Source: a virus. From it: a stretch of 64,000 nt of DNA. The notes under the pieces were generated by a model. It was not told the DNA's origin, did no database searches, and saw only the letters and a program-made list of their open reading frames with translations. This document shows positions 19,913 through 38,699 of the stretch, piece after piece. Position 1 is the stretch's first letter. Each line of letters starts with the position of its first letter. The translations under genes and the position numbers were made by a program. The stretch spans positions 1 to 64,000 of the IMG/VR virus record IMGVR_UViG_3300030101_002520; one strand, 5' to 3'.

Positions 19913-20584
19913 ATGCAAAGAATAGGAGATATAATTTCTCGGATTAGAGGTCAAATAAAAGCTGAATCTGAGGATGCTTTTGTTACAGATAGATACTTAT
20001 ATAGTTTAATTAAAAAGTATGCACAACTTTTTATGAGAAGGCAAGACAGCACTAATAAGCTTAAGAAGTTTAATAGTGTATGGCAAAGTTTAGATTTTGT
20101 AGAGCTAGTAGAAGTTGATAAAATAGAATCTAAATGTTGTGGTATTCAAAGTGATTGTAAAATAAAACGTACTAGATTAAAACTTCCAGCATTTATGGAA
20201 GGTTATTGGGGACCTTTAATTAGAACTGTATCTTCTATTGATGGATCTATAGAATGTCAAGCTACTTCACCTGGCACATATACATCAATGACCAGATCTA
20301 CATCATTTAAATATAATAAAACAAAATATTTCTGGTGGTTAAATGACTATTTATACTTACCTAATGTAGAATGGGATGCAATTAAAGTAGAAGGTATATG
20401 GGAAAATGATATATCAAAATTTAATTGTGATCCTTCTGATGATTGTATTCCTAGATATTTACAAAGAATATATGTACCAGAATTTCTATTTGCAGAAATA
20501 GAACAACAAGTGTTACAAGAAACCTTTAATACAATGAAAGTTCCTGCAGAAAATGCGGATGATAAACAAAATATAAATAGATAA
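19913..20584 (+). CDS. Tail ring/tubular protein
   Basis: Position; KYFWWLNDYLYLPN motif; helical termini; TAATG coupling to the next gene. Confidence 0.6.
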   Translation: MQRIGDIISRIRGQIKAESEDAFVTDRYLYSLIKKYAQLFMRRQDSTNKLKKFNSVWQSLDFVELVEVDKIESKCCGIQSDCKIKRTRLKLPAFMEGYWGPLIRTVSSIDGSIECQATSPGTYTSMTRSTSFKYNKTKYFWWLNDYLYLPNVEWDAIKVEGIWENDISKFNCDPSDDCIPRYLQRIYVPEFLFAEIEQQVLQETFNTMKVPAENADDKQNINR

Positions 20585-21498
20585 TGGCAATCTCACATAA
20601 ATATAGAACGTTTAATCAATTATTAGAAGATGTAACTATAGATTTTTCTAGTCAAGCTTTAGAAGGTATGGTTGAACCTCAACAGTTAATTAGAGTTGCA
20701 ATAAGAGTTAACTATGATTTAGGTTTAAGAATTAATAGAACAAAAGAATATCTTTTAGAAGTAGAACATGGTAAAGCAAAAATGCCAGCAGATTTTAAAT
20801 ATTTAAATTATGCTTTTGTATGTGATGAATTTAAAATAGTAAATACACTTCCTTCAGGTACACATATTGACACAACACAACCTAAATATGTACCAGCTCC
20901 TGATGGTGGTGATACAGGGCCTTGTGATGATCCTACATGTAAAGATGTTTGTATTGTCCAAACTTGTCCAGATGAAAAGAATGGAGAAACTGTGTTTAAT
21001 CAATATATGGTTGTTCAGTATATGGGTGCTGAACAGTATAGAACTTCTAATAGATTTTATCCTTTAAGAATTAAAGATAGTATTGGATCTGTACAAAACG
21101 GATGTCCAAATATGAATGTAGAGGCTGTTGATATAGCTGAAATAAGGGATGGTTATCTTTTAACTAATTTTGATACTGGTAAAGTATTTATAAGTTATCA
21201 AGGAGCTATGGAGGATGAGGATGGTAATCTTTTAGTTTTAGATCATCCTTACTGTAATGAATATTATGAGTATGCTTTAAAAGAAAGAATATTAGAGAAC
21301 ATGTTATTTGATGGAGAAAATGTATCACAAAAATTAGGATATATACAAGGTAGATTAAGAGCAGCTAGAAACAATGCTTTAGGATTTATAAATACACCGA
21401 ACTTTAAAGAAATGCAAAAAATATGGGAAGTAAATAGAAAGGCACAATATAATAATTATTATAATATGTTTAAAAGCTTTCCTACAACTAGAATGTAA
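20584..21498 (+). CDS. Tail tubular/ring protein (Ttub-like)
   Basis: GYLLTNFDTGKVFISYQGAMEDEDGNLLVLDHP motif characteristic of crAss-like tail tubular proteins; precedes the muzzle. Confidence 0.7.
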   Translation: MAISHKYRTFNQLLEDVTIDFSSQALEGMVEPQQLIRVAIRVNYDLGLRINRTKEYLLEVEHGKAKMPADFKYLNYAFVCDEFKIVNTLPSGTHIDTTQPKYVPAPDGGDTGPCDDPTCKDVCIVQTCPDEKNGETVFNQYMVVQYMGAEQYRTSNRFYPLRIKDSIGSVQNGCPNMNVEAVDIAEIRDGYLLTNFDTGKVFISYQGAMEDEDGNLLVLDHPYCNEYYEYALKERILENMLFDGENVSQKLGYIQGRLRAARNNALGFINTPNFKEMQKIWEVNRKAQYNNYYNMFKSFPTTRM

Positions 21499-24400
21499 TG
21501 GCAAAAAAACAATCAAATTTTAAGCCTGTTAATACCTCAAATATAGATACAGATGTATTTATAAAAGGTATGAATAAAGACTCTCATAGAAGTTTTGTTG
21601 GAAAGGAGAGTTGGACACATTGTAGAAATTGTATAAATAATTCTGCTAAAGGAGATGCTGGTACTGTAGGTAATGAGCCAGCAACTCTTCTATGTATTAC
21701 TACTGGTTATACTATTATAGGTGCTATTTATCTATATGGAGATAAATGGATATTATATTCTACTGATGATACTAATAGTGAAATAGGTTTATTTGATGAC
21801 AGTGAATGTACTTACAATCCATTAGTAAATGACACATGTTTAAACTTTAATAGATTTAATTTAATAACAGGAGCATCAAAAGAAAATTTTGATTGTACTT
21901 GGCAAGTATATTGGGATGACGGACTTAATCCATCTAGAACAATCAACTTAGGAAATAAAGATGAAATATTAGAAAATAATTATATTCCTTATGTTCAAGT
22001 ACAAGTTGCAGGTTTAGATGTAAATGGAGATCCTTGTGTTGAGTTTGAAAATGTTCAACCATTACAATTAGATTGTGATAGAATACGTTTAGCACCTTTA
22101 ATGAAAACACCATGTGTAAAACTATCTAAAGCAGATAGTCCTGGTCAACTATTAAATGGATCATACCAAGCTTATATAGCTTATTTAATAAATGAACAAC
22201 AAATAGGTAATTATATAGGTGTTTCAAATGTGCAAGCTTTATATGATGAAGGTGGCACTGCTTCTTCTTTAGATATTAAGATAACTAATTTAGATACTAA
22301 TTTTAGTGATTATAAATTAGTATTATTAATAAATAATCAACAACAACCGCAAGCTATACAAGTGGGTATCTATAGCACACATCAAACTGAAATAAATATA
22401 GATTATGTTTCAGAAAATAAAGCTACAGCTGCACAAGTAGATATAGCAGAATTGCCATTACAAAATCCTGCATATGAAAGATCAGATCAAATGGTTCCTG
22501 TTAATGATTACTTATTAAGAATTGGACCTACAACTAATTTTGATTTTAATTATCAACCGTTAGCAAATAAAATAACTGCCAAATGGGTTTCTGTAGAATA
22601 TCCTGCTGAGTATTATAAGAATGGAGGTAGCAAACCTACATTTATGAGGGATGAGCAATACTCATTTTTTATTAGATTTATATATAATACAGGAGATAAA
22701 TCAAGTTCATATCACATACCAGGGCGTGCATACTTAACTAACAATCCTATATATGGAGATGAAAAAGGTGCACCCGGTCAACAAAATGTTTTAAATAATC
22801 AAGAGACTGAAATATGGCAAGTAAATAATACTTCATTTGTAGATGACTTTGGACCTTTTGATAATCCTAATACAGATGATGGAGGTGTAATAATTTCTAA
22901 AGGTCAAATGGGTTATTGGGAATCTACAGAGTTTTATCCTGCTGAAGATCCTTATGGAAGATGGCAAGAGCTTTGTGGTCAACCTATAAGACATCATAAA
23001 TTTCCAGATGAACAAACTGATGAAACTGTAGATAGATCTAATGCTGATAATCAAAAAATTAGAGTGCTTGGTGTAGAGTTTGATAATATAGCCTGGCCTG
23101 TAGATAATGAAGGACAAATAATAAGAAATATTGTTGGTTATGAAATACTTGTAGGTTCAAGACAAGGTAATAAATCTATCCTATCTAAAGGTATAGTTAG
23201 AAATATGAAGCAATATAGATTACCTGATGCTCCACAAACAGGTGGTAACTATGGTGCTGATAATCCATTTCTTACAGACACTGTAGGTATAATGCCTAAC
23301 TATCCTTATAATGATTTAAGAAATGACCAATTCTTAACAGCAAATGCGCCAGATGGAGGTAATTCAAATAATCCACCAATGCCAGTAAGTGGTGCTTTTC
23401 GTTGTGGAGATACTACAGATTTTAGAGGTTGTAATAATTTTTATACATTTCATTCACCAGAGACATCATTTCAAAGACCGTTTTTAAATCCTTCAGAAAT
23501 GAAAACTTACGGTTACACTAGAGGAAAGCAACAAGGGTTTTTTAGACCTTCAGAAGGTCATCCTAAAAATATATTAATAAGAGACTTTGTAGCAATAATA
23601 GCAGCATTTATTGGTGTAGGTTTTGCTATTAGTAAACATCGTGGTAAAAGAACAACTGAGTTAGAAATAGGTGGTACTGTTGGTTATCCTGTTGCAAGTG
23701 CTGCTATTGAACCTTTAGAAACAGCATTTACAGCATCTTCATTAGTTGGTCCAGGTTTGGGTGAGGTTGTTTACTTTAATGGTACATCTGGAATAATTGC
23801 AGCTAATGCTGTTCCAGCAGGTATAGTAGGGCAATTAGGGGGTAATAGAAAAATTACATTTGAAGGAACAGATGTAAAGTCATTACCTAATATACCCGCT
23901 ATAATATCTGGTTTATTTACAACAATGCACTATGCTGCTGTTGGTGGACAAGAAGTTGTAGATCTTGTTTATAATGTAGCAGGTGAACATCAGTATGCTT
24001 ACAAGTATAATTCTTATGGTTTATATTCTATAACATCACCAATACCTATTGATCAAACATTTAGGCAAAATATAACAAAGTCAAGATATGTTGGTAATAC
24101 ATTTCAAGATTTTGGATCAGATGATATTTTTACAAATGTAAGAATTAACAATTTATATAGACCAGCTACAGTAGTTGTTCAAACAAATGGAACTGCTGAC
24201 AATATTCTTAATGCATTACCTACACCTTTTAACTTTGATGTTTCAAGAAATACTATAGGTAATTTAGGTATAACAGCTTTTCCTACAGCAGACATTAGAT
24301 CTGATATTGGTGCTCATTATGTTGCAATGAAATTTGCAATGGATAATCAATATGGACAATTAGACGGTATTAAACAAGTTCCTATTCCATGTCCTCAAAG

Positions 24401-27400
24401 ATTTATTAGGCAGGGTGCAAAGCCTGATCAAGATGAAGTAGAAGTTACACCATTAGATTTATTACCTTATGTTTCAACAAATTTAAATAATTTAATTCCT
24501 GGTGAAGTATTTAAAACAGAAACTTTATTTGGTGGTGATGTATATATAAATAGATATAGTGAGAAAGTTATAATGCCTTTCTTTTGGGAATTTTTAAATG
24601 GTCAACCTGATAACTTTGGATTTGATTATAGAGACTATCAAAATGTTCCTTATCCAAGATATTATATGAGTACAAATAAATATGATATGCATAATTTATT
24701 TGCCCCATTACTTGATTTAAGTTTTAACTGGTCAACAGGTGATAGTATTCCTAGTGCTATGCGTAATATGGATAAGGAAGGTGATGGTTTATCTGGATCT
24801 TTTGGTGGTGGTGGTACTATTAATATAGGTGCAGCTTCAGGTATAGGAACAGGTGGTCAAGGTGCTGCACAAGGTAGTAGTTTATTTGTATTAAGAAGAG
24901 CATACATGTACACTCATAATAGTGGTGTAAATGATTTCTTTGTAGAGTCTGAATTAAATCTTGCATATAGAGCACAAGGTGAAGGTAGAAAAGAAAAATA
25001 TTATGACTGGTCACAGTTTACAGATCTTAATACTTTATTTCATTCTGATATTATTAAAGAAGGTAATTTTTATAAGTATGATTATTCATTAAGTAAGTCT
25101 AATTTAATAAGTCAATTAATAAGTTACAGTTTAATACAAGGTAGAGATTATGATCCAAATGTAGCAGCTACATGTTATGATCACTATACAAAAAGAGTCT
25201 TATATTCATTACAAGCATTTAAAGAAGCTAAACAAGATTTCTGGAGAGTATACCTACCAAATAACTATAAAGACTTTAAGAATGCTCCTACAACTATTAA
25301 ACCTATATCTAAAACAGGAGCAATGATTTTATTTCCACATTTAGCTCCATTATTATTTGAAGGTGTTGATACACTTACAACTGATTTAGATACTAAACTT
25401 ACTATTGGTGATGGAGGTTTATTTAGTCAACCAATGAAGCAAATTACTACTGCTGATTTGCCACATGAATATGGATCATGTGAAAATTCTAGAAGTGTGA
25501 TTAATACACCAGCTGGTATTTATTATATCTCTCAAGCTCAAGGTAAAATATTTAATGTTTCAGGTCAAGGTTTAAATAATATTGCTGATGCTGGAATGAA
25601 ACAATGGTTTAATACATATTTACCATCTAGATTATTAGCTGCTTTTCCAGAAATAGAAGGCACAGATTTTGCTGATAATCCTGTTGTAGGTATAGGATGT
25701 CAAGCTGTATATGATCCTAATTATGATATAGTTTACTTTTCTAAAAAAGATTATGAACCTTGTAATGTAGATAGTTGTATAGAGTTTGATCCTACTATTC
25801 CTGGTTTTATTAATCCTTGTGAAAACCCTCCTGTTGAAGAATGTCCTGATGGATTTATTCTAAATGAAGAAACAGGATTATGTTGTACTGAGTGTTCTCC
25901 AATTCAAATAGATAATGGAGATCAGTGTTGTACTTGGTATTTTCAAGAACCTGATTTTGAATTGCCTAGTGCTCCTTCTGATGCTAATTTTGATGCAGTA
26001 GATTTATATTTAGAAAATGGCGGATTTCAAAATGAAACTGGAACTCCTTACTGGCCAGACTGTACATTTACCTCTGATAACGATGGCAGTTGTATTGACC
26101 AAATAATGCAAAGTGGGTGGGGAAATGTTCCTAGTCCATGGGAACCTTGCATGAAAGATTGTTGTGATCCTTATTTTATAGATGCTGATGGAATAGAACA
26201 GTGTTCTCCAGTTTGCGCAGGTCTTATTCCAACGCCTGACTGTGGTGAACAAGGACATGCTCAAACTACTGATAGTCTTAATGGTGAAATTTTTAGGCAA
26301 ACTAAAACAAGAACTTGTTGTGGTTTAAAACCATTTACAGGTACTACTTATTTAGGATTAGTACATCAATGGAATGGAAATTATCCAGGAGCATGGCAAG
26401 AAGGAGCAAGTCAGGAATTAAAAGATGAAGATGGTAATCCTCAACCAATGACTACTGGTGCTATATATGAAGGAAGAGTAGTAGTAGCAGCAGATTATCA
26501 AAAAAATCTTGATGGTGAACCAGGTTCTCCTTTGGTACTTATTGCTGGTATTTTAGGTGAGGAGGCTGAGTTCCCTCCACCTGATCCAGTATATGATACT
26601 TATTACACTAATATACCGCCAGAAGAAAATCAAGCACTATATGCTGATTTTCCTTATGATATTTATCAGTCTGCTTATCAGTGGGGCGTAAAATGGGAGA
26701 TAACATATAATATATTTGAAGATGTTACTTCAGTAGTTGATCTATTCAATTGCCGTTTGAATACTGAAGTTATATTGCAATGGGATGCAGAGTCACCACT
26801 TCGTGATTTAGAATTAAATGTATATCCAGTACTAGGTGGACCTAACGAAAATGAGTGGGGTGGATATCAAGGTCAATATTATAATAGACCTGAAATACAA
26901 ATATGGGGTAGTATGGAGCCTTGTCTTAGTGAGGACGGATATTGGTGTACTGCATTTGATACAGTAACTGTACCAGGTCCTGCATACGGTGATCCTGTAA
27001 ATGTAGTTGAATATATTGGAAGCCCTGATGATGCAGAATTACTTTGGAGATCAGGAGATATTTCTCAAGGTGGAACAGTGCATCATATAAATACCGGTTG
27101 GGTACCATATACTTATACATTACAACCAACAAAACCATGGAAGTATTTTACTTATCTAGTAAACGGTTTACCTGCTATTCACTATCAATTTAGCGGTAGC
27201 ACCATGACAGGTCAATATAGGGATGTAACTTCAACTGGTGCTTACTTATGTTTAGATAGCCTTACACCTCCTAGTGTTGTAATTACACCTGGGTTTTGTT
27301 CGTGTGCTGATCCTTATACTTTAGTTTTTGATGATGGTGAATATCAAACACCTGCAACAGAAGAAGATTGTCTTAATTTTCAAATAAATGGTACTAATCC

Positions 27401-30400
27401 TGTAATATGCGCATTACAAGAGTGTACAGATAAGGTGTGTACAGAACCCACACTTGTAAACCCTCCTATAGATATAACAAATAGTGAAGACTTTAAAGAT
27501 GTTTCTTGGACTGCAAGTTATGATCCTAAAATAAAAGGATGGATATCATTTCATGATTGGCATCCAGAACTTACTATATCTAGCTTAAATCATTTTATGA
27601 CTACAAAAATTAGTAGTATAGATAATTTATATTGTCCACCTAATTATGAGTTAAATCCAATAACTGGTCAATGTGATCCAATAAATATAGAATGCCCAGA
27701 AGGTTCAGTTTTAATAGATGGTGAGTGTTGTAGTGTTGCATATGGTGAATTAAATTATAACCCTGGTGATCTTGATAGTGTAGAGTATAACATGAATGAA
27801 GGAGTTGTAAATATGTTTACTAGGGTAGATACAACTAAATCTTATACATATAGTGATAAGAATACAATTCAATTTGAAATTGATGATAAAGTATTACAAA
27901 ATATAAAAAGATTTAAACCTAAGACTTTTAAATTAAATATACCTTTTTATGAGGATGAAACAATTGAGGTTACATTAGAACATACATCTGTAAGAAAGAA
28001 AGATTTTGTTTATTTAGCTAGAACTAAAGATGGATATGAAAGAAAAAATATATATCCTAATGTTCGTACATATAAAATTAAATCAGATAATATTAGTGGT
28101 ATATTAAGTATTTCTGATAACTCAGTAATAGGAACTTTAGTGAAAGATAAAAAGATATCTGAGATACATAGGGCTAATACTAATACACATGTTTTATATA
28201 AATCTTCTGATGCTAAAGTTAAATCAACATTCACATGTCTTACAGAAAATGCAAAAGATTCAGCTATAAGAGCAGCAGGTAGAAATACACAAACACCTAG
28301 ATCTTTAAATGCTCAGTGTATTACAATGGCTTTTGATATAGACTTTCCTACAGCAAATGCGCTTGGTGGTGATCTTCCTAATTTTTTAGAAACTGTAGTA
28401 GCTGGAATGAGTGAAATTTATACCAATGAATTAAATACAGAAATTATACTTGGTAGCATGGTAGTTTCAGAAGCAGAAGGTATTATTTATAGTGAACAAT
28501 TACCTGATATAGTGGATGAAAATGGAAATGTTATTGAAGCAGGAGAGTATGTAATACAATCATCTCAAGAGATGTTAGATTTATTAATTGATACTTGGAC
28601 AAATACTCCGGAGTTAGAAGATATTGAAAGAACTACTGTTCATTTAATAACTACAAGACTTTCTACTGGTAGAGCTAAAAAGTTAGGTTTATGTAGCAAG
28701 TCACAAAGTTTTGCTGTTTGTGGTTTAGCTTCATCATTTGTTATACAAGGTCAACCGGGTAGTTTGGGTTATTCAATTGAAGATGGTTGGGTAGGAGTTG
28801 CAATTTCTTGGCCACTAAAAGTTCTTTGTCATGAGCTTGGTCATAACATTGGATCTAGTCATACTCATGCTGGATATTGGCAACCAGATCCTAATTATAA
28901 TTTTCCAGGAGGCCCTATAGATTCTTGTGATTCATTTTCTAATACTTATGATCAAACTAATTCAAATGCTAGTGGAGTTGATCCTGATACTTTAGAATGG
29001 AATAGTAATATAGAATATGGAACAATAATGAGTTATTGTCAATGGTTACCTGATGCAGATGATCTAATGACTTTTGAATTTCATCCTATTGTTAAAGATC
29101 AAATATTAATTCCAAATCTAACTCAAGATTCAACTAATGCAATTCTTTATTTTGATGTATCAAGTCAAAATGCAGTATCTAGTGATGATATAATGGCAAC
29201 TCCATGTTTATCTTGCCCAGATGTTGTTACAGACGAAACATATGGATGTACCGATGTTAATGCATCAAATTATAATCCAAATGCAACAATTGATGATAAT
29301 AGTTGTGTATATGATATACCTGGAGGCTGCACTGATCCAACAGCATTAAATTATGATGTATCAGCAGAGGTTGATAATGGTAGTTGTATTTATGATTCTA
29401 CTTTTGGCTGTACTGATCCAATAGCAATAAACTACAATGCTAATGCAACCGATGATGATGGTTCATGCATTTATCCTCCACCAACTATATTAGGTTGTAC
29501 TGATCCTGCTGCATTAAATTTTGATCCTGCAGCTAACACACCTTGTACAACAGATGCCCAGGGTATTTTTAATTTTTTAAATGCTTGTTGTGTATATCCA
29601 CCTGTATTAACTTCTTGCACCTGCCCAAGTGGTTATATAATGATACAAGCAGGATCTTTAAACTCTAGCACACTTGAATATGTTGAAGCTACTGCAGCTG
29701 ATTGTCTTAATTGTGGAGGAACTTGTGTGGAATGTATTCAGATAAACTGCACTCCTTTAGATACAGATAGTTTAGAACCATCAGCTGGATCAGGAAGTTT
29801 ATGGAAACATAATGTTCGTTGTGATTTATTTAACAACTACTATGATGTACAATATCCTTGGGAGATAGAGCTTGTAGAAAGTATAGGTCAAACAGTTAAT
29901 ACTATAAGAAGTATTGAATATCAATTAGAATCATATTTACATCAACCAAAGTTAGATGAAGATGGTTGTGTTTTAAATTATGGATGTGATGATAGATGGC
30001 ATGATCTTAGTTATAATTTTGATGAAGCTATTATTTATAATACAGAACAAGTATCTGGTTTACTAACACTTACAGAACAGACAGCAGATGTTAATGATAT
30101 TGTTAGTTATCCAATAATAGGTGTAGCAGATATAAATATTCTTTATAGTAAAATAGAACAAAAATATAGGTTTGATCAATTTTGGGATGTTACAAATGAT
30201 AGGTCTGTACCTGAACCAATATTTATTACACAACTAAATGGTTATGTAAGAGATCTTAATGAGGCTTATATGAACTATAACAAGCCACAATTAGAACGTA
30301 AGAAGTTTAGACATTATGTGAATAATTTAATTTTAAGAAAGAAAGTTTCTGTTGATGAATTAGAACAACCAATACTTCATACAAGAAAGATGATACTTAA

Positions 30401-30437
30401 ATTAGTAAATACAAAAATAAATTTATCAGTTAGATAA
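21498..30437 (+). CDS. Tail stabilisation/muzzle protein expanded by two large insertions (CBM-like domain; reprolysin-type metalloprotease plus GCTD repeats)
   Basis: FIKGMNKD...GNE N-terminus, FMRDEQYSFFIRF, FGGDVYINRY and SWTASYDP...WISFHDW core motifs of crAss-like Tstab; HELGHNIGSSH and GTIMSYC within the insert. Confidence 0.8.
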   Translation: MAKKQSNFKPVNTSNIDTDVFIKGMNKDSHRSFVGKESWTHCRNCINNSAKGDAGTVGNEPATLLCITTGYTIIGAIYLYGDKWILYSTDDTNSEIGLFDDSECTYNPLVNDTCLNFNRFNLITGASKENFDCTWQVYWDDGLNPSRTINLGNKDEILENNYIPYVQVQVAGLDVNGDPCVEFENVQPLQLDCDRIRLAPLMKTPCVKLSKADSPGQLLNGSYQAYIAYLINEQQIGNYIGVSNVQALYDEGGTASSLDIKITNLDTNFSDYKLVLLINNQQQPQAIQVGIYSTHQTEINIDYVSENKATAAQVDIAELPLQNPAYERSDQMVPVNDYLLRIGPTTNFDFNYQPLANKITAKWVSVEYPAEYYKNGGSKPTFMRDEQYSFFIRFIYNTGDKSSSYHIPGRAYLTNNPIYGDEKGAPGQQNVLNNQETEIWQVNNTSFVDDFGPFDNPNTDDGGVIISKGQMGYWESTEFYPAEDPYGRWQELCGQPIRHHKFPDEQTDETVDRSNADNQKIRVLGVEFDNIAWPVDNEGQIIRNIVGYEILVGSRQGNKSILSKGIVRNMKQYRLPDAPQTGGNYGADNPFLTDTVGIMPNYPYNDLRNDQFLTANAPDGGNSNNPPMPVSGAFRCGDTTDFRGCNNFYTFHSPETSFQRPFLNPSEMKTYGYTRGKQQGFFRPSEGHPKNILIRDFVAIIAAFIGVGFAISKHRGKRTTELEIGGTVGYPVASAAIEPLETAFTASSLVGPGLGEVVYFNGTSGIIAANAVPAGIVGQLGGNRKITFEGTDVKSLPNIPAIISGLFTTMHYAAVGGQEVVDLVYNVAGEHQYAYKYNSYGLYSITSPIPIDQTFRQNITKSRYVGNTFQDFGSDDIFTNVRINNLYRPATVVVQTNGTADNILNALPTPFNFDVSRNTIGNLGITAFPTADIRSDIGAHYVAMKFAMDNQYGQLDGIKQVPIPCPQRFIRQGAKPDQDEVEVTPLDLLPYVSTNLNNLIPGEVFKTETLFGGDVYINRYSEKVIMPFFWEFLNGQPDNFGFDYRDYQNVPYPRYYMSTNKYDMHNLFAPLLDLSFNWSTGDSIPSAMRNMDKEGDGLSGSFGGGGTINIGAASGIGTGGQGAAQGSSLFVLRRAYMYTHNSGVNDFFVESELNLAYRAQGEGRKEKYYDWSQFTDLNTLFHSDIIKEGNFYKYDYSLSKSNLISQLISYSLIQGRDYDPNVAATCYDHYTKRVLYSLQAFKEAKQDFWRVYLPNNYKDFKNAPTTIKPISKTGAMILFPHLAPLLFEGVDTLTTDLDTKLTIGDGGLFSQPMKQITTADLPHEYGSCENSRSVINTPAGIYYISQAQGKIFNVSGQGLNNIADAGMKQWFNTYLPSRLLAAFPEIEGTDFADNPVVGIGCQAVYDPNYDIVYFSKKDYEPCNVDSCIEFDPTIPGFINPCENPPVEECPDGFILNEETGLCCTECSPIQIDNGDQCCTWYFQEPDFELPSAPSDANFDAVDLYLENGGFQNETGTPYWPDCTFTSDNDGSCIDQIMQSGWGNVPSPWEPCMKDCCDPYFIDADGIEQCSPVCAGLIPTPDCGEQGHAQTTDSLNGEIFRQTKTRTCCGLKPFTGTTYLGLVHQWNGNYPGAWQEGASQELKDEDGNPQPMTTGAIYEGRVVVAADYQKNLDGEPGSPLVLIAGILGEEAEFPPPDPVYDTYYTNIPPEENQALYADFPYDIYQSAYQWGVKWEITYNIFEDVTSVVDLFNCRLNTEVILQWDAESPLRDLELNVYPVLGGPNENEWGGYQGQYYNRPEIQIWGSMEPCLSEDGYWCTAFDTVTVPGPAYGDPVNVVEYIGSPDDAELLWRSGDISQGGTVHHINTGWVPYTYTLQPTKPWKYFTYLVNGLPAIHYQFSGSTMTGQYRDVTSTGAYLCLDSLTPPSVVITPGFCSCADPYTLVFDDGEYQTPATEEDCLNFQINGTNPVICALQECTDKVCTEPTLVNPPIDITNSEDFKDVSWTASYDPKIKGWISFHDWHPELTISSLNHFMTTKISSIDNLYCPPNYELNPITGQCDPINIECPEGSVLIDGECCSVAYGELNYNPGDLDSVEYNMNEGVVNMFTRVDTTKSYTYSDKNTIQFEIDDKVLQNIKRFKPKTFKLNIPFYEDETIEVTLEHTSVRKKDFVYLARTKDGYERKNIYPNVRTYKIKSDNISGILSISDNSVIGTLVKDKKISEIHRANTNTHVLYKSSDAKVKSTFTCLTENAKDSAIRAAGRNTQTPRSLNAQCITMAFDIDFPTANALGGDLPNFLETVVAGMSEIYTNELNTEIILGSMVVSEAEGIIYSEQLPDIVDENGNVIEAGEYVIQSSQEMLDLLIDTWTNTPELEDIERTTVHLITTRLSTGRAKKLGLCSKSQSFAVCGLASSFVIQGQPGSLGYSIEDGWVGVAISWPLKVLCHELGHNIGSSHTHAGYWQPDPNYNFPGGPIDSCDSFSNTYDQTNSNASGVDPDTLEWNSNIEYGTIMSYCQWLPDADDLMTFEFHPIVKDQILIPNLTQDSTNAILYFDVSSQNAVSSDDIMATPCLSCPDVVTDETYGCTDVNASNYNPNATIDDNSCVYDIPGGCTDPTALNYDVSAEVDNGSCIYDSTFGCTDPIAINYNANATDDDGSCIYPPPTILGCTDPAALNFDPAANTPCTTDAQGIFNFLNACCVYPPVLTSCTCPSGYIMIQAGSLNSSTLEYVEATAADCLNCGGTCVECIQINCTPLDTDSLEPSAGSGSLWKHNVRCDLFNNYYDVQYPWEIELVESIGQTVNTIRSIEYQLESYLHQPKLDEDGCVLNYGCDDRWHDLSYNFDEAIIYNTEQVSGLLTLTEQTADVNDIVSYPIIGVADINILYSKIEQKYRFDQFWDVTNDRSVPEPIFITQLNGYVRDLNEAYMNYNKPQLERKKFRHYVNNLILRKKVSVDELEQPILHTRKMILKLVNTKINLSVR
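29241..29597 (+). repeat. Four GCTD-x-x-A-x-N-[YF]...SC-x-Y disulfide repeats
   Basis: YGCTDVNASNYNPNATIDDNSCVY, GGCTDPTALNYDVSAEVDNGSCIY, FGCTDPIAINYNANATDDDGSCIY, LGCTDPAALNFDPAA... Confidence 0.9.
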
Positions 30438-33169
30438 TGTATAGTAAAGACGGATATAAAAGAAATAGCAAGGATAGAAATAATCCATTTAATATAATAC
30501 CATCAGGTAATATAACTATGGAGGATGTAGACTTTCCTGTGTTTGGTATGGATAACTTAGGTAATAGTAAACTTATGATGCCGGGTGCTAACTATCAATT
30601 TCCAGGTGATGAAGTTTTTGAAATGCCTTTACCACAATACCAAAGAGCAGGTGCACTAAAAACAATTTTAAACTTTTTTAAACCTGCAGTAAAAAAAGTT
30701 GATGATGTAGTAGACATTGCAAAAGTAGATGATATTATTGATCCTCTTAATATTAGAGAGATGCCTCCAGGTTTAAACATGCCTAGACAAAAAGACTGGT
30801 TATTTAAAAGACATACTAATGTTGATGATATAATGGAACCAATGGAGTTTCCAGGTAATGTAATTCGTAGTGGAGTACCAGTTCCTACTAAAATAAGTTG
30901 GTTTACTCCATCTTCAAGAGCTTATTCAGATTATGGTTCTATGACATTTCAAGGAAATATAGTTCCTAAAAATCCTCTTTATCTTGATAGAAATAGAATA
31001 TATAGTGAAGAGTTTATGAAAGATGTTATGAATAAAGGTTATGATGCTATTATAGTTAGAGGTAGAGTTAATAATACAGGACCTCTTGTAGATGATATAA
31101 GATATGCAAAAGAAGTTATTCCTTTAAATAAAGATCTTATTAAAAATTTAGAAAGGATAAGAGAGTATGGCGGTTCATTACCAAAATTTCAAAACGCTGG
31201 TGAGTATGATGAGGATGGATATAAGACTGTGACATATGGTGCTAATAAAAAGAAATATCAAGATACAGGTGATTGGTCAGAGTATGAACCTTATGAAACA
31301 TATAGTGGTCAAACATATAGAAAAAGAACATATGAATTAAGCAGAGATGATTTAAGATATTTAGAATATAAAAAAAGTTTTCTTAAAGATGCTAATTATA
31401 GAACAGGTAAAAATAATGCTCCAAGAAATCTTACACAATTTATAAGAAATTCTAATAAAGCTTGGAGAGTACAAGAGATTATAAAAGATAATGGAGCAGT
31501 ACTATATCAATTACAATATCCAACTGAAACAGGTTTTAGAACATTTGCATCAGGTGATGCTAACTCAGGTCTTGCTAATTTAAATCCTGAGTATGTGCAA
31601 GGTTTAAAGAAAACAGGTAAAAAAGGTATTACTCAATTCAGTAGCTGGTTTGATATGGCACCACAAGAAAGAAAAGACTATGGATATAATGAGTGGTTTG
31701 ATCAAGGTTTTAAAAGAGATCTTAAAATTAATAAAGATGGAAAGACAAAAAGTGGCTGGAAATATTATGGTGAAAAAACACCTTTAACATATACATTAAG
31801 TGATGTAGAAGTACGTAAATTACCTAAATCAATAGTTCAAAAATACAATCTTGTTGGAAATGATAAAATAAAACTTAGTCCTACAACCGGAGAAATTTAT
31901 TTTATAACTGGAACTGGTAGTTTTAGAAATGTTGTTAATCAAAAGGATATGCAATGGTTTCAAAATCCAGGCAGATTAAAAGAATTAGCATATGATTCTA
32001 GATTTAATTACAAAGAAGATAATGTATTAGATTATTTAAACAATCCTGATTTCAGATATTTTGCTGATAGTCAAACAACTACTTTGGATCCTGTTAAACT
32101 AGATGGTTTACCTTCAGAAAAAAATATGTCTTTGCAAAAACCTAAACCTTATGAATCTACAGTTACTTTAGAACCTAAAACTTTAGATCAAATAGAAACA
32201 GAAAGAGAAGATGAGATAATAAAAAGAAGACCATATGAAGCTCCTGTTACTTTAGATCCAGTAGAATTTAAAGGCTTTTCTGATAAAGAAGAAAGTATAA
32301 AAAAATCTAATCCTTATGAATCTGCAATAACTTTAGATAAAAAAGAAATTGAAGAGATTCCTGTAGATGAGAGCTCTTTAATAGAAAGACGTAAGCAAGA
32401 AACACCAATTACATTAGATCCTATAAATGTAACTGGTATTGATTCAGATGGAACTATAACAACAGATGCATCAAAACAAAGGTTTGTTCCAAAGCCTGAC
32501 ATTCAAACAGATATGCCTGATATAGTTCTTACTCCTGAAATGGAAGAAAAAAGAGATAAAGCTAAAACTGTTGAAGATATTATGGGTAATCTTCAAGATG
32601 TTAGAGGTACAACAAAATATGTAAATAAATCTGCAAAGGCTATATTAGATGCAGTAAATAAAGAAGACTATACTGAAAAAGATTTATCAAGAGATTTAGG
32701 TATATTTGAAAAATATTATGGTCAAGAAAATTTAGGTTATCTAAAAGATATGTTAGATAAAACACAAGGTCCTAAAGCAAATAAAGGTATAGAAGTTTTA
32801 GAAGATGGAAAGTTTGATATAAAGATGAATAGGTTAAATTCTATTATTGATAAGTATGATGCAGATCAAGATCTTTCACCTGCTGAAATGGAATTATTAG
32901 AATCTTATGGTTTAATGTCTAAGACAGAACCAGAGGTGGAAGAAGTAAAAGAAACTGATTTAGTTATAGATAATAAGAAGTTTAGTTTAGATGATCAGAT
33001 TTATATTTATAATCAGTATTTAGATAGCGCATTTACAAGTGATGATGAAGAAAAAAGTGGTAATAAAATAGTTGATAAAATAAATAGAGTATATTATAAT
33101 CAAGCTAAGCAAAAAGATATACATGTGTATGACTTATTATTAGCTATGCAAACTGAGATGAGACAATAG
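30437..33169 (+). CDS. Putative virion cargo polyprotein: N-terminal IPSGNITM domain, ART-like domain, variable region, ~28-aa repeats
   Basis: TAATG-coupled to the muzzle; modules delimited by PQYQRAG / YGGSLPKFQNAG / PKANKG. Confidence 0.6.
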   Translation: MYSKDGYKRNSKDRNNPFNIIPSGNITMEDVDFPVFGMDNLGNSKLMMPGANYQFPGDEVFEMPLPQYQRAGALKTILNFFKPAVKKVDDVVDIAKVDDIIDPLNIREMPPGLNMPRQKDWLFKRHTNVDDIMEPMEFPGNVIRSGVPVPTKISWFTPSSRAYSDYGSMTFQGNIVPKNPLYLDRNRIYSEEFMKDVMNKGYDAIIVRGRVNNTGPLVDDIRYAKEVIPLNKDLIKNLERIREYGGSLPKFQNAGEYDEDGYKTVTYGANKKKYQDTGDWSEYEPYETYSGQTYRKRTYELSRDDLRYLEYKKSFLKDANYRTGKNNAPRNLTQFIRNSNKAWRVQEIIKDNGAVLYQLQYPTETGFRTFASGDANSGLANLNPEYVQGLKKTGKKGITQFSSWFDMAPQERKDYGYNEWFDQGFKRDLKINKDGKTKSGWKYYGEKTPLTYTLSDVEVRKLPKSIVQKYNLVGNDKIKLSPTTGEIYFITGTGSFRNVVNQKDMQWFQNPGRLKELAYDSRFNYKEDNVLDYLNNPDFRYFADSQTTTLDPVKLDGLPSEKNMSLQKPKPYESTVTLEPKTLDQIETEREDEIIKRRPYEAPVTLDPVEFKGFSDKEESIKKSNPYESAITLDKKEIEEIPVDESSLIERRKQETPITLDPINVTGIDSDGTITTDASKQRFVPKPDIQTDMPDIVLTPEMEEKRDKAKTVEDIMGNLQDVRGTTKYVNKSAKAILDAVNKEDYTEKDLSRDLGIFEKYYGQENLGYLKDMLDKTQGPKANKGIEVLEDGKFDIKMNRLNSIIDKYDADQDLSPAEMELLESYGLMSKTEPEVEEVKETDLVIDNKKFSLDDQIYIYNQYLDSAFTSDDEEKSGNKIVDKINRVYYNQAKQKDIHVYDLLLAMQTEMRQ
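32078..32440 (+). repeat. About five degenerate 27-28-aa repeats (PYE-x-x-[VI]-TL[DE]P-[VI])
   Basis: TTLDPVK, PYESTVTLEPK, PYEAPVTLDPVE, PYESAITLDKK, QETPITLDPINVTG. Confidence 0.8.
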
Positions 33170-33193
33170 CTATAATTAGATTATCTCCTTAAT

Positions 33194-33214
33194 ATTTAGT
33201 ATATTATTATATAG
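33194..33214 (+). promoter_or_regulatory. Putative late promoter TTTAG-TATATTATTATATAG
   Basis: Recurrent motif, nearly identical to 13285-13301. Confidence 0.55.
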
Positions 33215-33225
33215 ACTGTATTTTT

Positions 33226-36200
33226 ATGTATAAAAAGTTAAAAAAATATCAAAACGGCACAGGTATTATACCTACAGAGATTGATAAAACTTATGTTGCT
33301 CCTGAATATGCTTTTCCTGGTGCATATAGGGGTGTTGGTTCAGGGGAAAGATCAAAGTCTGAGATTGAACAAATGATGTATAGTATTTTTGGTCCGCCGC
33401 CTTCTACAGCAGAAGAGATGATGCAATTAACGGATGATATAGCTATGACAAACATTGATCTAAAAAGAGACATGAAAGGTGATAATAGTTTAACACGTGG
33501 TACAATTAATCTTTTAAAAGCAATAGGTAAAGGAATTGTTAGTAATCCGTTAGGTGTTTTTGTTGCAGAAAATATAGATGCAATACTTACTGATGAAGGT
33601 CCTACTGATTATCAAAAAGACTTTTTATTTCCTGGTGTATATGATGATAGAACACCAATTATTATGAACTATGGATCTGAGTTACGTAAGGCTCAAGAAG
33701 GTAATATTGAGGATGAACCTTTATATCAAAGTTTAAAAAACTATTTAGATGATCCTGAAAGAGCTAAGTTAGTTGCAGAGAATCCTTTACTACCTGCAGC
33801 TGAAGAATATATTTACGGTAATCTATTAAATCCACCACAGTTTATGGGAGATGATAGTATATCAATTGATTTAATGGCTGGAGATGATGGTGTAATTGAT
33901 GCTAATGACTTAACGCTTATAAAAAATGAATCTCAAAGAAATTTACAAAAAGCAGGTTATAATCCTGATAAGGTAAAAACTTTTAAAGAGTATGGGCAGG
34001 ATGCATTAAGATTTTTAGGCAATGTTGGTAGAGGTGCTAGAACTGCATTTGCTAGAAATCCGCTTGGTTTACTTTTAGCAAATACTGTTGGAGAAGCTTA
34101 TGATTATGCAACAACTGGTGAATTACCAGAGCCAAGTCCTTATATGCAAATGTTAACAGGTACATTTGGTCAGCCAGATGAAAATCAAATATATGCTTAT
34201 GGTGATGAGATTAGAGATCTTGTAACTCCACAAAAAAATCCTAATATACAAAATATATATGAAGGTGATGATAGATTTACTATATCTAAAATGGAAAGAG
34301 AGAAAGAGAAAACAGATAAGCTTTTTCAGGAACAACAAGAGTATTTATATGATGAGTCTGGATTTCTTAATCCAAACTTAGATTTATCTAAAAATCCATT
34401 AAGAAATAAAAAGTATACACTATACAATCCATATAGTGAAGATATGTTTTATGATCCTATGAATCCTACTAAATTATTTACTGAAACAGAGTATGGAGAG
34501 TATCAAGATGATATGACAACTACAAGAACTATAGCAGCTTTAAATCAAAGAGCTGACATGTATCCAGAATTATTTCAAAAGGTAACAGGTTTTGATCCTG
34601 AAACAAAAGAAATAACATATGCAGGAGATAAACTAGAAGGAGATTTATTTAGTGACGCAAATCCTGATTCTGCTTATTTACAATATACTACACCTGAAGG
34701 TGAAGAGTCAGGTAGTTTTACAGGTAGTTTAGTATCTGATGCAGAAGGTGATATAACAGCTCCTGTATATGATCCTTTTGATCAATATGAAAATGATGAA
34801 GGTACATATACTTTCATGGAAGCAGAGGCTAAATACGGTGGTATACCAAAATACCAAAGAGCAGGAACTATAAGGAGAATAATGAATTTTTTTAAAGGTG
34901 CAGATGATGTAGCTGATGTTGCAAAGACAGCTAATACCGGTGTTTCTAAGAATGAAATTTTACAAAAGTTTTTACAACAAGGTGATAATTTAGAGAATTA
35001 TAATGACATGATTACTAGAGGATTTAATATAGATTTAAATTCACCATTAAGTAGACAGGCTATTACAAATTATAAAACTAAGTTTCCTTTAAATTTTGGT
35101 GCATCAGATGAGCTTGCTGCAACTACCAAAGATTCTAAAGAAGTTATTGAGGCTCTTGGTTATGATGCAATAACAAAAAGAGCAAACCTTTTAGATGATT
35201 ATATTGCAAAAAATCCTGGTTACAAAACATCACCAGAAGATTTTACTTATTTAGGTAATAAGAGTGGTAGACAAATAGTATCTGTTGACACTCCTGTTGG
35301 AACACAATATTTTTATAAGTCTTCAGGTCTTGCTGGAAAAAAAGGATCAAAGGATATGTGGGTTCCATTAGAAGGATTTTTAGATGATACTTCAGGAATG
35401 GCAGTAAATAGATTGAAAGGAAATCCTGATTGGTTTATGAAAAGAGGATCAGTGGGAACATATAAAGGACAACCAATTGAAACAATAAGTTTTGCAGATA
35501 AAACTACTAAGGGTGTAAAACAACAGTTAATAGATATGGGTGTTGATCCTAATGAAGCTTTAAGATCTGGAGATCTTATATTAGATAAACCTGGCTGGGA
35601 TTTTGCATATACTACAAATCCTGATTCATTTTATAATAAATTGTCTAATCAGCTAGATAGAATAACACAAGAAAAAGGTTGGGGTGTTCTTGATAAAACA
35701 ACTAGAGCACATGGTGGACCACATACTGAAGAAGAGTGGGAAGAGTGGAGACAACAAAGAGAAAACTATCAACAAAATAATATGTCTAATGAATCCGTTG
35801 GTAATGAATTTAATTATTATGATAGTATAGCACCAGGTTCATATGATTCTAGTGTAATGGATAATATGTATTTTGCTGATCAGTTTCAAGAAAAAATAGA
35901 AGAAGACACTGATGATGAGTTTGAATTTGCTGATCCTAATAAACCAGTTATGAGTGTAAAGGATGAAGAGCGTAAACCAAGAGATTTTAACTTTAAACCA
36001 TTTGAAGCTTTAGTTACAGGATTAGGTGCAGTAAATCAAATGTTAGAAAACAGACCAAAAGATTTTTCTACTAACCAATTAGCAATGAATCAGTTTCAAG
36101 AAGACACAAGAAATAATAGAGGATTTTATGATGTTAATACTGGTATTTTAAATCCAGATAGAAATATTGTAGAAAGACAAGCTGCATATGGAGGTAGAAC

Positions 36201-36309
36201 TGATCAATTAAGAAATAGACAATATGATGATATTGATACTACAATAGAATTAGATGAAGGAACAATACAAGAACTAATAGCTGCTGGAGCAGAAATAGAT
36301 ATATTATAA
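33226..36309 (+). CDS. Putative virion cargo polyprotein with multiple GG-motif-delimited modules and a toxin-like domain
   Basis: KKYQNG, MNYGSELRKAQEG, YAYG, AKYGGIPKYQRAG, RAHGG and AAYGG motifs; C-terminal ELDEGTIQELIAAGAEIDIL. Confidence 0.55.
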   Translation: MYKKLKKYQNGTGIIPTEIDKTYVAPEYAFPGAYRGVGSGERSKSEIEQMMYSIFGPPPSTAEEMMQLTDDIAMTNIDLKRDMKGDNSLTRGTINLLKAIGKGIVSNPLGVFVAENIDAILTDEGPTDYQKDFLFPGVYDDRTPIIMNYGSELRKAQEGNIEDEPLYQSLKNYLDDPERAKLVAENPLLPAAEEYIYGNLLNPPQFMGDDSISIDLMAGDDGVIDANDLTLIKNESQRNLQKAGYNPDKVKTFKEYGQDALRFLGNVGRGARTAFARNPLGLLLANTVGEAYDYATTGELPEPSPYMQMLTGTFGQPDENQIYAYGDEIRDLVTPQKNPNIQNIYEGDDRFTISKMEREKEKTDKLFQEQQEYLYDESGFLNPNLDLSKNPLRNKKYTLYNPYSEDMFYDPMNPTKLFTETEYGEYQDDMTTTRTIAALNQRADMYPELFQKVTGFDPETKEITYAGDKLEGDLFSDANPDSAYLQYTTPEGEESGSFTGSLVSDAEGDITAPVYDPFDQYENDEGTYTFMEAEAKYGGIPKYQRAGTIRRIMNFFKGADDVADVAKTANTGVSKNEILQKFLQQGDNLENYNDMITRGFNIDLNSPLSRQAITNYKTKFPLNFGASDELAATTKDSKEVIEALGYDAITKRANLLDDYIAKNPGYKTSPEDFTYLGNKSGRQIVSVDTPVGTQYFYKSSGLAGKKGSKDMWVPLEGFLDDTSGMAVNRLKGNPDWFMKRGSVGTYKGQPIETISFADKTTKGVKQQLIDMGVDPNEALRSGDLILDKPGWDFAYTTNPDSFYNKLSNQLDRITQEKGWGVLDKTTRAHGGPHTEEEWEEWRQQRENYQQNNMSNESVGNEFNYYDSIAPGSYDSSVMDNMYFADQFQEKIEEDTDDEFEFADPNKPVMSVKDEERKPRDFNFKPFEALVTGLGAVNQMLENRPKDFSTNQLAMNQFQEDTRNNRGFYDVNTGILNPDRNIVERQAAYGGRTDQLRNRQYDDIDTTIELDEGTIQELIAAGAEIDIL

Positions 36310-36311: not shown

Positions 36312-38699
36312 ATGGGAAGAAAAGTAAAAATAAAAAGTTTACCAAAAGGCTTTATACTTAAAGATAATAAAATAATTAAAGAGTATGGAGGTTCTAAAAC
36401 TGGTGACCAAGTAGGATATGGTTTAACTACATTTCCTAAAACTAATGATGCTAATGGTATGGGTGATTCTACTAGCACATTTTTTCCATCTAAAAATGAG
36501 ACTAAATATACATTACAGCCAGATCCTAGAAAAGAATCTAATGTAGAAGCTGAAAAAAATGAAACAGTTCTTACAGATTTAAATTTTGATGGTGATTTTG
36601 AATTCTATAATATTGGAGGTAAAAGGCATAATCAAGGTGGTACACCTTTAAATTTACCAGAACAGTCATTTATATATTCAGATACTAGATCTATGAAGCT
36701 TACAAAAGATGAAATGTCAGAGCTTAATGTAGATTCTAAAAAAAGAATAACGCCAGCTAAAGTATCTAAAAATTTTGAGTTAAATAAATTTACTGAACTT
36801 TTAAATGATCCTTATGCTGATAAAATACAAAAGGATACAGCTGACTATATGTTAGATAAAAATAAAAATAAACTATCTCATTTAGCATTTGTACAAGAAG
36901 CAAAAAAAGATTTTGAAGAGGGTGTTCCTAAAGCAGCCTTTCCTTATTTAAAAAAGAAAGGAATTGATCCTATAAAGTATGCTGATATTATGGAAAAAAT
37001 AAATACACAACAAGAAGCACTAGCAGAAAAGATGGAGATGGGTCCTACAGATCAAGAAAAAACTCAAGTGCTTATGTCTTTTCTTCCAGGTAATGATCAA
37101 GAGTCTGCACCTCAAATGCAACAGCCTGCACCAATGCAACAAAATATGCCTATGAATAATCCTATGACTATGGCACAAGGTGGTACAGAAATAACAGACT
37201 TTGAAAAGAATTGGAATAGTTCTAAGTATGATGATTTAAAAGAAGAGTTTTATGCCCAGTATGCAGCCGTATTAGATAAAGATGAGTTAAGTGATGAAGA
37301 GAAGACAGCAATAGATAAATTGCTAATTCAAGATACTCAGATGAAAACTTTAATGCATGATAATTTTGAAAGTGATTATTTTACAGGAAAAGATTGGGAT
37401 GCAGGGGGTGACCAAAGGAATGCAAGGTATAATGCTGCTGTACAAAAGTTAATTGATGATGGACTATACGAAGGTGAAGCATTAACGGAAGATCAAATTA
37501 AAGAAGTTCAGAATGCACATATTGTTTTAAATAATATGTCTGTTATGCCTGAGTATGAGAAACTTATGACCGATACTGGTTTAAATTTATTAGGCCCTGA
37601 ACAAAAAGGTAATCTTGGTTCTAATCAAACTTTATCTAGATCTGATGGTGTTGCTGGTGATAATTTTATAAATACATTCCCTACAACTAAGACTACTATT
37701 ACACCTGATGAAAATACTCCTAAGATAAATTTACCTGTTGGTGATGAGTATGTTCAGCCAGATCCTGGCTATTGGTTGCAGGATAATATGAACTTATTAG
37801 GATCTATAATGGACAAGTTTACTATTAAGAAAAGAGGTCCTGTATTATCACAATACCAACCTGAGTATATTGATGCAATGTATCTTAGCCCTACAAGACA
37901 GTTTGCAAAGATAGGTGAGATGGCTGCTCAAGCTACAAAAGCAGCTACAACATTTGCTGGTCCTCAAAGAGCTTTAGCAGTAGCTAGTAAAGTTCAAGGA
38001 GAAGCAATGAAGCAACTTGCAAATGTACAAGCTGATACTGATAATAAAAACTTAGCAATATTTACAGATGTAGATGGTAAAAATACTGTTATAAGAAATC
38101 AGTTTGAAGAGATGAATAAAAGAGCATTATCTGATTTCTATGATAAGACACAGTTAACAGAAGAAAATTATGATACTGCTATAAGGAATGCAAATCAAGC
38201 AATTGGTAGACAATTAGTAGCAAGAGAGACTAATAGAGCTATGACTAAGAACCTTAATACTTTATATCCTGCATTTGATATTGATCCTACAAAAGGAGGA
38301 GATATAAATATTCTAGACTATAACATGTTCTTTCCAACTGATGATGCTAGTGAAACAGCATATAATACTAAAGTAAATAGGATAAAACAATTAATTGATG
38401 ATGAAGTAATAGATAAAGTAACGGGTGATAAGTTATTATTAGATTTAATTAATACGGATCTTAATGCTCCTAAAGCAAATCCTTATGAGAATACTATTTT
38501 AAATCAGATGAATTATCCTAGTTATGGTCAGTTTAATCAGTTTACAAATCCTCTTATGCAGCAACTTGCTATGTTGAATCAAATGAATCAACAAAATAGA
38601 AGAAGTCCATATGGGGAAGAAGGTATGGAAGTAGGATATGTGCCAGTTAATCCTTTTACGTTAAGAAGACCTAAGAGAAAATTGGTTGATTTGGATTAA
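36312..38699 (+). CDS. Virion cargo/ejection protein with NVEAEKNE...GGKRHNQGG...FIYSD domain and helical C-terminus
   Basis: Position among the cargo genes; KEYGG and MAQGG motifs; A/Q/N-rich coiled-coil C-terminal half. Confidence 0.55.
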   Translation: MGRKVKIKSLPKGFILKDNKIIKEYGGSKTGDQVGYGLTTFPKTNDANGMGDSTSTFFPSKNETKYTLQPDPRKESNVEAEKNETVLTDLNFDGDFEFYNIGGKRHNQGGTPLNLPEQSFIYSDTRSMKLTKDEMSELNVDSKKRITPAKVSKNFELNKFTELLNDPYADKIQKDTADYMLDKNKNKLSHLAFVQEAKKDFEEGVPKAAFPYLKKKGIDPIKYADIMEKINTQQEALAEKMEMGPTDQEKTQVLMSFLPGNDQESAPQMQQPAPMQQNMPMNNPMTMAQGGTEITDFEKNWNSSKYDDLKEEFYAQYAAVLDKDELSDEEKTAIDKLLIQDTQMKTLMHDNFESDYFTGKDWDAGGDQRNARYNAAVQKLIDDGLYEGEALTEDQIKEVQNAHIVLNNMSVMPEYEKLMTDTGLNLLGPEQKGNLGSNQTLSRSDGVAGDNFINTFPTTKTTITPDENTPKINLPVGDEYVQPDPGYWLQDNMNLLGSIMDKFTIKKRGPVLSQYQPEYIDAMYLSPTRQFAKIGEMAAQATKAATTFAGPQRALAVASKVQGEAMKQLANVQADTDNKNLAIFTDVDGKNTVIRNQFEEMNKRALSDFYDKTQLTEENYDTAIRNANQAIGRQLVARETNRAMTKNLNTLYPAFDIDPTKGGDINILDYNMFFPTDDASETAYNTKVNRIKQLIDDEVIDKVTGDKLLLDLINTDLNAPKANPYENTILNQMNYPSYGQFNQFTNPLMQQLAMLNQMNQQNRRSPYGEEGMEVGYVPVNPFTLRRPKRKLVDLD

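Follow-up and report, generated by a model that had tools for sequence, protein, structure and literature searches.

Two adjacent genes of a crAss-like phage, here called A and B, encode proteins which share a peptide of about 30 residues; this peptide and the domains that it precedes are the subject of the analysis. The window, that is, the whole stretch of DNA analysed, comprises 64,000 nucleotides (nt; positions 1 to 64,000 of IMG/VR record IMGVR_UViG_3300030101_002520), forms part of a 115,139-base-pair virus record with a completeness rating of 98%, and is recognisable from its sequence as that of a marine crAss-like phage. In the list of open reading frames (ORFs), gene A (30437..33169, + strand; 910 amino acids, aa) begins at the stop codon of the muzzle protein gene and consists of an N-terminal module (N-module), one cassette and a conserved C-terminal body (C-body). 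Gene B (33226..36309, + strand; 1027 aa) follows after a gap of 56 nt, and its backbone is conserved in the relatives P0121-P0128 and L002 (P- and L-numbers denote collected relatives). Both genes occupy positions at which cargo genes are found in a characterised crAss-like phage, as described below. Copy 1 of the peptide, with its junction, lies at 30629..30727 (+ strand; A residues 65-97, reading LPQYQRAG, ALKTILNFFKPAVKK, VDDVVDIAKV), and copy 2 at 34831..34929 (+ strand; B residues 536-568, reading KYGGIPKYQRAG, TIRRIMNFFKGA, DDVADVAKT). An earlier note on this DNA had described homologous peptides at 30632-30724 and 34846-34926, and BLASTP bears this out: A 65-97 and B 540-568 align with 18/33 identities and one 4-residue gap (E 5e-7), and A and B have no other similarity. 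When the entire 115,139-bp record was searched in six frames with the B copy, only the A copy was returned (E 5.4e-7), giving two copies per genome. Chance similarity was considered as an explanation and rejected on the basis of BLASTP, the whole-record search and sequence shuffles.

By its sequence, the shared segment is composed of three parts: a seam, a basic amphipathic stretch and an acidic tail of the form DDV-x-D. The seam consensus is [LI]P-x-[YA]-Q-x-[AG]G, mostly with an aromatic-Gly-Gly motif ahead of it; A and B have the form [LI]P-[QK]-Y-Q-R-A-G, with KYGG ahead in B. The basic stretch of 12-16 residues (ALKTILNFFKPAVKK in A, TIRRIMNFFKGA in B) has a helical hydrophobic moment at the 98.7th percentile within its own protein in A and at the 99.1th in B, and is followed by the DD-rich tail (VDDVVDIAK in A, DDVADVAK in B). 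In an AlphaFold2 model of A 66-251, residues 66-108 have a pLDDT below 50 while residues 109-243 are folded confidently, so that the segment is predicted to be an inter-domain connector outside the fold that follows it. The peptide had been called a leader; it does recur ahead of unrelated domains, as shown below, but the name is only loosely apt, as the B copy starts in mid-protein (residue 540 of 1027) and the A copy is preceded by the 64-residue N-module.

Searching 5.8 billion proteins with A yielded more than 180 relatives, nearly all of which share only residues 1-67 with it (65-88% identity), and many also residues 848-904 (32978-33148), where conservation is lower. The N-module (residues 1-64; 30437..30628, + strand) keeps this level of identity, measured over residues 1-67, across more than 100 proteins and 19 IMG/VR loci irrespective of what comes next, and is, from these alignments, the constant head of the A family, ending in the seam. 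Its conservation (30437-30640) where all else differs suggests contact with a conserved part of the virion. Between the conserved ends, members of the family carry SLT, LysM, YkuD, GH24, ART-PolyVal, Peptidase_M91, kinase-like or unannotated regions. The collected proteins contain 201 instances of the seam in the form P-x-[AYF]-Q-x-[GA], often with GG ahead; an acidic domain start comes next in 89 of them, a mixed segment in 85 and a basic amphipathic leader in 27. The 27 basic leaders align with each other, and behind them stand at least ~10 unrelated downstream clusters among the collected relatives, in line with the suggestion of the earlier note that the peptide is followed by differing domains. 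Domains of the type found in A occur in relatives at positions from residue 100 to residue 557, and all 11 of them have the seam (GG-x-LP-x-AQ-x-G) and a basic stretch ahead. The A cassette is closed by a second seam, YGGSLPKFQNAG (residues 244-255; 31166..31201, + strand), which is of the acidic type with no basic leader behind it; in L001, L002 and P0002-P0005 it is likewise conserved where the C-body begins. The peptide thus marks domain borders and precedes unrelated domains. A word-based search with A 66-255 retrieved A and P0002 only. The whole of A or B matched one locus or none among the IMG/VR loci and one locus in a metagenome scan, and tblastn of A 1-110 against 50,697 GenBank phage records gave no match. 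Three tandem repeats of ~27 residues (PYE[SA]-x-[VI]-TL-[ED]...) were observed in the C-body at 32136-32350.

Junctions were compared at the DNA level in L001/L006, in L002 (a Tara contig) and in matched metagenome contigs. The B cassette (residues 547-828, 282 aa; 34864..35709, + strand) is an insertion relative to P0126-P0128 and L002, which are 82-90% identical to B on both sides and lack residues 547-828. The empty site reads AKYGGIPEAQRAHGGPHTEEEW and is itself a seam. The filled site reads AKYGGIPKYQRA/G-leader-domain-TTRA/HGGPHTEEEW (…IPKYQRA/G…TTRA/HGG, the slashes marking the cassette edges), with AGAGCA at both DNA edges (34858-34863 and 35704-35709). Within the cassette there are two leader types (YQRAG..NFFK and KAQLGLGKLGSKFLKWLK) and an internal block that likewise has two versions; six sequences between them show each of the four possible combinations, for which recombination within the cassette is needed. 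Elsewhere in B, relatives carry two alternative and largely unrelated versions of the N-terminal third (residues 1-325; 33226-34200), both of which start with MYKKL[KN]KYQN[GA].G, a seam-like motif at the extreme N terminus.

In A-type genes, the number of cassettes between the same N-module and C-body (80-85% identical) varies from one in the window to two in L001/P0002 (an ART-PolyVal-type cassette followed by an A-type cassette) and three in L002. The L002 gene (L002:2879-8776) encodes 1965 aa, with leader-headed cassettes beginning at residues 66, 593 and 934 and no Pfam match. The window A leader is a DNA chimera of the two L001 leaders: as far as codon 82 it agrees with leader 1 (108/126 nt), and from codon 83 onward with leader 2 (106/108 nt), the reciprocal comparisons giving 45-55%. 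The switch is sharp and places the crossover point at codons K82-P83-A84 (30680..30688, + strand), within the leader. The earlier note had proposed that reads across alternative junctions be sought, and such junctions were found in other marine samples at 30682-30687. A 4311-nt contig from run X8, of another study, matches 30300-30687 and 30682-33287 with 936 extra nt between, and a contig from run X4 departs from the window at 30682 and continues into an ART-PolyVal-type cassette. Together with the L001 chimera, these contigs locate a break at K82-P83-A84, inside the leader, in independent data. Run X5 has no cover over 30708-31115 and most of 34788-36215 and yielded no joining contig, and was not counted as evidence for an empty site; a 2157-nt joint and further joints among the matched contigs were disregarded because of short sides or unclear content. 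Related phages have therefore gained or lost whole cassettes in-frame by breaks inside the peptide. Of the cassette exchange proposed by the earlier note, this part holds, with the empty B site, the chimeric A leader and the X8 and X4 joints, whereas a recent exchange from A to B has no support.

The passenger domain of A (residues 98-243; 30728..31165, + strand) is modelled by AlphaFold2 with a pLDDT of ~75-95 over residues 109-243. Its top Foldseek matches are all ADP-ribosyltransferase domains (PARP4, the RhsP2 toxin tip and PARP1-3), with a probability of 0.95-1.0, E-values of only 5e-3 to 3e-2 and TM scores of 0.3-0.42; VIA-align gave Z scores of 6.0-6.6 over 125-140 residues, below the level which that tool calls clear. 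The models thus lend moderate support to an ADP-ribosyltransferase-like fold. Residues F123-x-R125, F156-x-P158 and G201-x-D203-A204-I205 are invariant among A-type domains, and the candidate glutamate E226 is glutamine in 5/11 members; a catalytic triad (H-Y-E or R-S-E) cannot be affirmed from the alignment. The domain appears distinct from the ART-PolyVal family: A 98-251 had no Pfam match at E up to 1, PF18760 ART-PolyVal included, hhalign of the A-type alignment against the ART-PolyVal segments of relatives gave 0.7%, and in P0007 and P0009 the A-type and PF18760 domains are separate regions. The core passenger domain of B, of ~170 residues (639-815; 35140..35670, + strand), represents a conserved family without a fold match. 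Twenty-two relatives were found among 1.84 billion representatives, mainly C-terminal in proteins of 200-480 residues, with the invariant motifs FYKSSG-x-GGK-x-GS, W-x-P-x-EG and WF-x-K. No Pfam match was obtained for this domain, an ESM Atlas search with the B cassette gave no usable match, and its AlphaFold2 model (mean pLDDT 81) had no structural match (best Foldseek E 0.23, best VIA-wide Z 3.4). The most distant relatives of the B domain, P0129-P0139, are mostly proteins of 200-480 residues starting with MKTSPFK, MAFKMRQSP or MS.K.KF.SKSP; they may represent small proteins, virion or internal ones, from other groups of marine phages. The domains in A and B had both been described as toxin-like, a label which retains moderate support for A and for which no fold match speaks in B. 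They are not homologous (hhalign probability 0.16%), as the earlier note had stated, and each is the only recognisable passenger domain of its protein in the window.

The muzzle protein gene (21498..30437, + strand) encodes 2979 aa and was identified by PF25731 crAss_MUZ (E 4e-17) and a PHROG annotation as virion structural protein. The order of muzzle gene followed by A and B matches that of phage PhicrAss001, and A and B stand at the positions of its cargo genes gp45 and gp46. In PhicrAss001 this place holds the cargo proteins gp45 and gp46 and the virion RNA polymerase proteins; gp45 and gp46 (cargo C1 and C2) are large and in part unstructured, and tail and capsid are the places of their storage (Bayfield et al. 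2023, PMC10172136). By analogy of gene position, and from the domain content of relatives, A and B are probably packed in the particle and injected. Cryo-EM resolved two segments of gp45, of which residues 214-245 lie on the ring proteins and residues 425-552 on the portal (PMC10172136). In the gp45 sequence (L003:3988-6513), aromatic-Gly-Gly motifs occur at 207, 331, 425 and 558 and FAEGGG at 260, and the resolved segments are bracketed by AYGG 207, AFGG 425 and AYGG 558. This bracketing, which goes undiscussed in the structural report (PMC10172136), offers a parallel that supports a border role for the seams. The PhicrAss001 cargo proteins resemble A and B in following directly after the muzzle gene and in having motifs which bracket segments of gp45 as seams bracket cassettes here. 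They differ in that gp45 lacks enzyme-like passenger domains and shows no evident LP-x-AQ-x-G seam followed by a basic leader, and in that they have no detectable sequence similarity to A, B or the products of the next two genes, C and D. A search of the full-text literature found nothing on a modular or linker organisation of Crassvirales cargo proteins. The N-terminal region of C was considered as an equivalent of the portal-binding domain of gp45 and rejected, as BLASTP and a search of PDB sequences gave no match.

Taken together, these observations make it likely that the shared segment serves, in two cargo (ejected) proteins of the virion, as the junction at which a passenger-domain cassette opens. 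The N-module and C-body of A, and the whole backbone of B, would be constant carrier parts into which independently folding domains are spliced at seams. Because every cassette opens with a similar peptide, joins between peptides would yield a working protein: an in-frame join of two such peptides would restore a functional connector, and the peptide would be the place where surviving swaps happen. The peptide would probably remain as an uncut flexible connector, allowing each domain to fold, unfold and thread through the tail separately, and its amphipathic part may act as a handle against the inner wall of the particle or a membrane. A further step would be to regard the seam and basic leader as a portable loading code, such that any domain carrying the peptide is spliced in, held via the handle or cleaved, and injected; we consider this extension rather doubtful. 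If true, these phages would possess a general plug-in system by which arbitrary effector domains could be shot into their Bacteroidota hosts.

Several observations weigh against the cassette junction interpretation. The A crossover shares only ~4-6 bases and the B edges only AGAGCA, and with so few shared bases the breaks could be ordinary illegitimate in-frame insertions or deletions kept by selection, and not the outcome of any promotion by the DNA of the peptide. The parents of the chimera are deduced from a relative that is 85% identical, a comparison in which deletion and insertion look alike. AlphaFold2 predicts no confident helix for the amphipathic stretch. Finally, since A and B have no detectable similarity to gp45 or gp46, their designation as cargo derives from gene position and the domain content of the family; BLASTP of A, B, C and D against gp45 and gp46 gave nothing below E 0.3 in comparisons that were pairwise only, no profile search against gp45 and gp46 having been made, and Pfam and PHROGs searches of the same four proteins gave no match.

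The amphipathic stretch may instead be a docking or packaging handle that binds a virion part, such as the inner wall of the tail barrel rings, the muzzle, the portal or a scaffold, keeps each passenger domain in the cargo zone and provides for an ordered release of domains, in a manner comparable to the capsid targeting sequence of phage T4 internal proteins. In PhicrAss001, the gp45 helix 214-245, which starts right behind AYGG, is bound to R1/R2, and an additional unassigned 14-residue helix is seen on the muzzle (PMC10172136). The hydrophobic moments of the leaders and the placement of the peptide before unrelated domains, as would be expected of a portable tag, agree with such a role. Against this, the leaders have no sequence similarity to gp45 214-245 and are quite variable, which fits poorly with a fixed binding groove, and the constant N- and C-terminal parts of the carriers could load them, so that a handle on each cassette is not obviously needed. 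Docking as the role of the peptide appears rather unlikely.

The peptide could also be a processing site, in which case a phage or host protease would cut the seam (aromatic-GG ... P-x-A-Q-x-G), and A and B would be polyproteins that free effector domains before packaging or after injection. A short and strongly conserved peptide located exactly at domain borders would be expected of such a site, several viral proteases use Gly-Gly and Gln-Gly sites, and the muzzle protein contains an M12 metalloprotease-like domain. Autoprocessing has been proposed for the polyvalent proteins of some phages (PMC5512222). However, gp45 peptides from both sides of such motifs were recovered from PhicrAss001 virions, and one chain was modelled across tail and capsid (PMC10172136). 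No protease of this specificity was identified within the window, and no relative was found in which cassettes are separate genes or in which A and B are fused. Cleavage at the seam is on balance unlikely to be the role of the peptide, and a membrane-active segment, in which the ejected basic stretch lies on or in the host membrane and positions the passenger domain, is a distinctly weaker candidate. The high hydrophobic moment and net positive charge of the stretch are suited to this, and the PhicrAss001 cargo proteins have been proposed to form a trans-envelope channel (PMC10172136); but the stretch is merely 12-16 residues long with an acidic run behind it, no transmembrane segment is present, and the domains that follow it include some for which cytoplasmic action is expected (ADP-ribosyltransferase-like, kinase-like) as well as others.

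The earlier note had drawn attention to a 21/22-nt DNA match between the two copies, which is present as described: the 22-mer TACCACAATACCAAAGAGCAGG at 30630-30651 recurs at 34844-34865 with one mismatch, and no match of this kind appeared in 100 shuffles (0/100), far beyond chance for random DNA. Over the 29 aligned codons, 18 residues are identical and 13 of these use the same codon, compared with 11.8 expected from the strongly biased codon usage of the window, so that amino-acid identity and codon bias explain the match. DNA identity between the copies falls to only 72% over 78 nt. The sole oddity is the rare Tyr codon TAC (10% usage), found in both copies. Tyr-Gln is written TAC-CAA in 5/53 Tyr-Gln(CAA) pairs of the window ORFs, three of the five being the YQ of leader A (30638-30643), that of leader B (34852-34857) and an LSQYQ in protein C (37854-37859). 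A leader subtype, YQ[RK]AG...[FW]F[KR], occurs in orthologues of A and of B in phages down to 68% identity, and the likeness of the two copies would therefore be old, reflecting common ancestry of one leader subtype; recent A-to-B exchange has no support in these comparisons. That A and B currently exchange warheads in the manner of polymorphic toxin loci, with the 22 nt as a homologous recombination anchor, is very improbable, given that the DNA match and shared TAC codon which favour it are set against the codon and identity counts above, few-base microhomology at the A crossover, no A domain in a B backbone or the reverse among the collected relatives, and no contig joining 306xx to 348xx.

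The cassette organisation may be compared with several known systems. The polyvalent proteins of phages and conjugative elements are multi-domain mosaics delivered with the DNA, which combine ADP-ribosyltransferase, peptidase, kinase and peptidoglycan-cutting domains (Iyer, Burroughs, Anand, de Souza and Aravind 2017, PMC5512222). The word linker is absent from that report, which describes no conserved junction peptide (PMC5512222). Relatives of A likewise carry PF18760 ART-PolyVal, Peptidase_M91, SLT, LysM, YkuD and GH24 domains; P0009 combines Peptidase_M91, ART-PolyVal and an A-type domain, P0004 has a kinase-like and P0005 an SLT domain. Unlike the polyvalent proteins, the cassettes here are placed inside a conserved carrier, and A of the window has just one domain, without a match to PF18760.

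Polymorphic toxins (Rhs, CDI), studied by Zhang, Aravind and colleagues, combine a constant part with a variable enzymatic domain that is replaced by recombination. The toxin domain is at the extreme C terminus, with an immunity gene directly downstream and often orphan toxin/immunity cassettes. The earlier note had classed the locus with these, and the top structural matches of the A domain do include the ADP-ribosyltransferase toxin tip of RhsP2. In its defining features the architecture departs from theirs, and the locus is not a polymorphic toxin: the cassettes are internal (A 98-243 of 910 residues, B 547-828 of 1027) with conserved C-terminal parts, neither an immunity gene nor an orphan cassette array is present, and delivery would be by a phage particle and not by a secretion system. 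The gap between B and C is 2 nt, and the ORF list contains no + strand ORF of 40 aa or more between A, B and C. The internal proteins and Alt of phage T4 have a short shared N-terminal capsid targeting sequence before unrelated injected proteins, one of them an ADP-ribosyltransferase; those proteins are small and separate, the sequence stands at their true N terminus, and the prohead protease removes it. The resemblance lies in one short peptide ahead of unrelated domains, but the peptide in A and B is internal, and any cleavage or targeting by it would be hypothetical.

In both gut and ocean, crAss-like phages rank with the most abundant viruses, and to our knowledge little is known of what they inject beyond RNA polymerase. 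At this locus, the putative cargo proteins appear as carriers with enzyme-like domains spliced at a recognisable junction peptide, and three DNA-level lines of evidence (the empty site in B, the chimeric leader in A and the alternative joints that other samples contain) document domain turnover at that peptide. What the locus adds is a basic-leader form common to both genes, a clean example of an empty site, and a crossover within a leader that other samples confirm. The peptide provides a simple rule by which giant unannotated proteins can be divided into domains for testing, and might indicate a defined insertion place for foreign domains and their delivery by virions.

Pfam matches upstream of the muzzle gene include the crassvirus major capsid protein (Crass_capsid, 5068-6711) and the tail ring proteins R2 (CrAss_Ring_2, 19913-20584) and R1 (CrAss_Ring_1, 20584-21498). 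The metalloprotease-like domain of the muzzle protein is a reprolysin-like M12 zinc-metalloprotease domain at residues 2275-2467 (28320-28900; PF13688, E 7e-9), after which there are four GCTD-type repeats of ~27 residues each at 29243-29525. Downstream of A and B, genes C and D are followed by two genes for giant proteins of 4979 aa and 1938 aa, the second of which (57082-62898), next after the 4979-residue giant, contains a LysM domain at residues 465-491 (E 5e-7).

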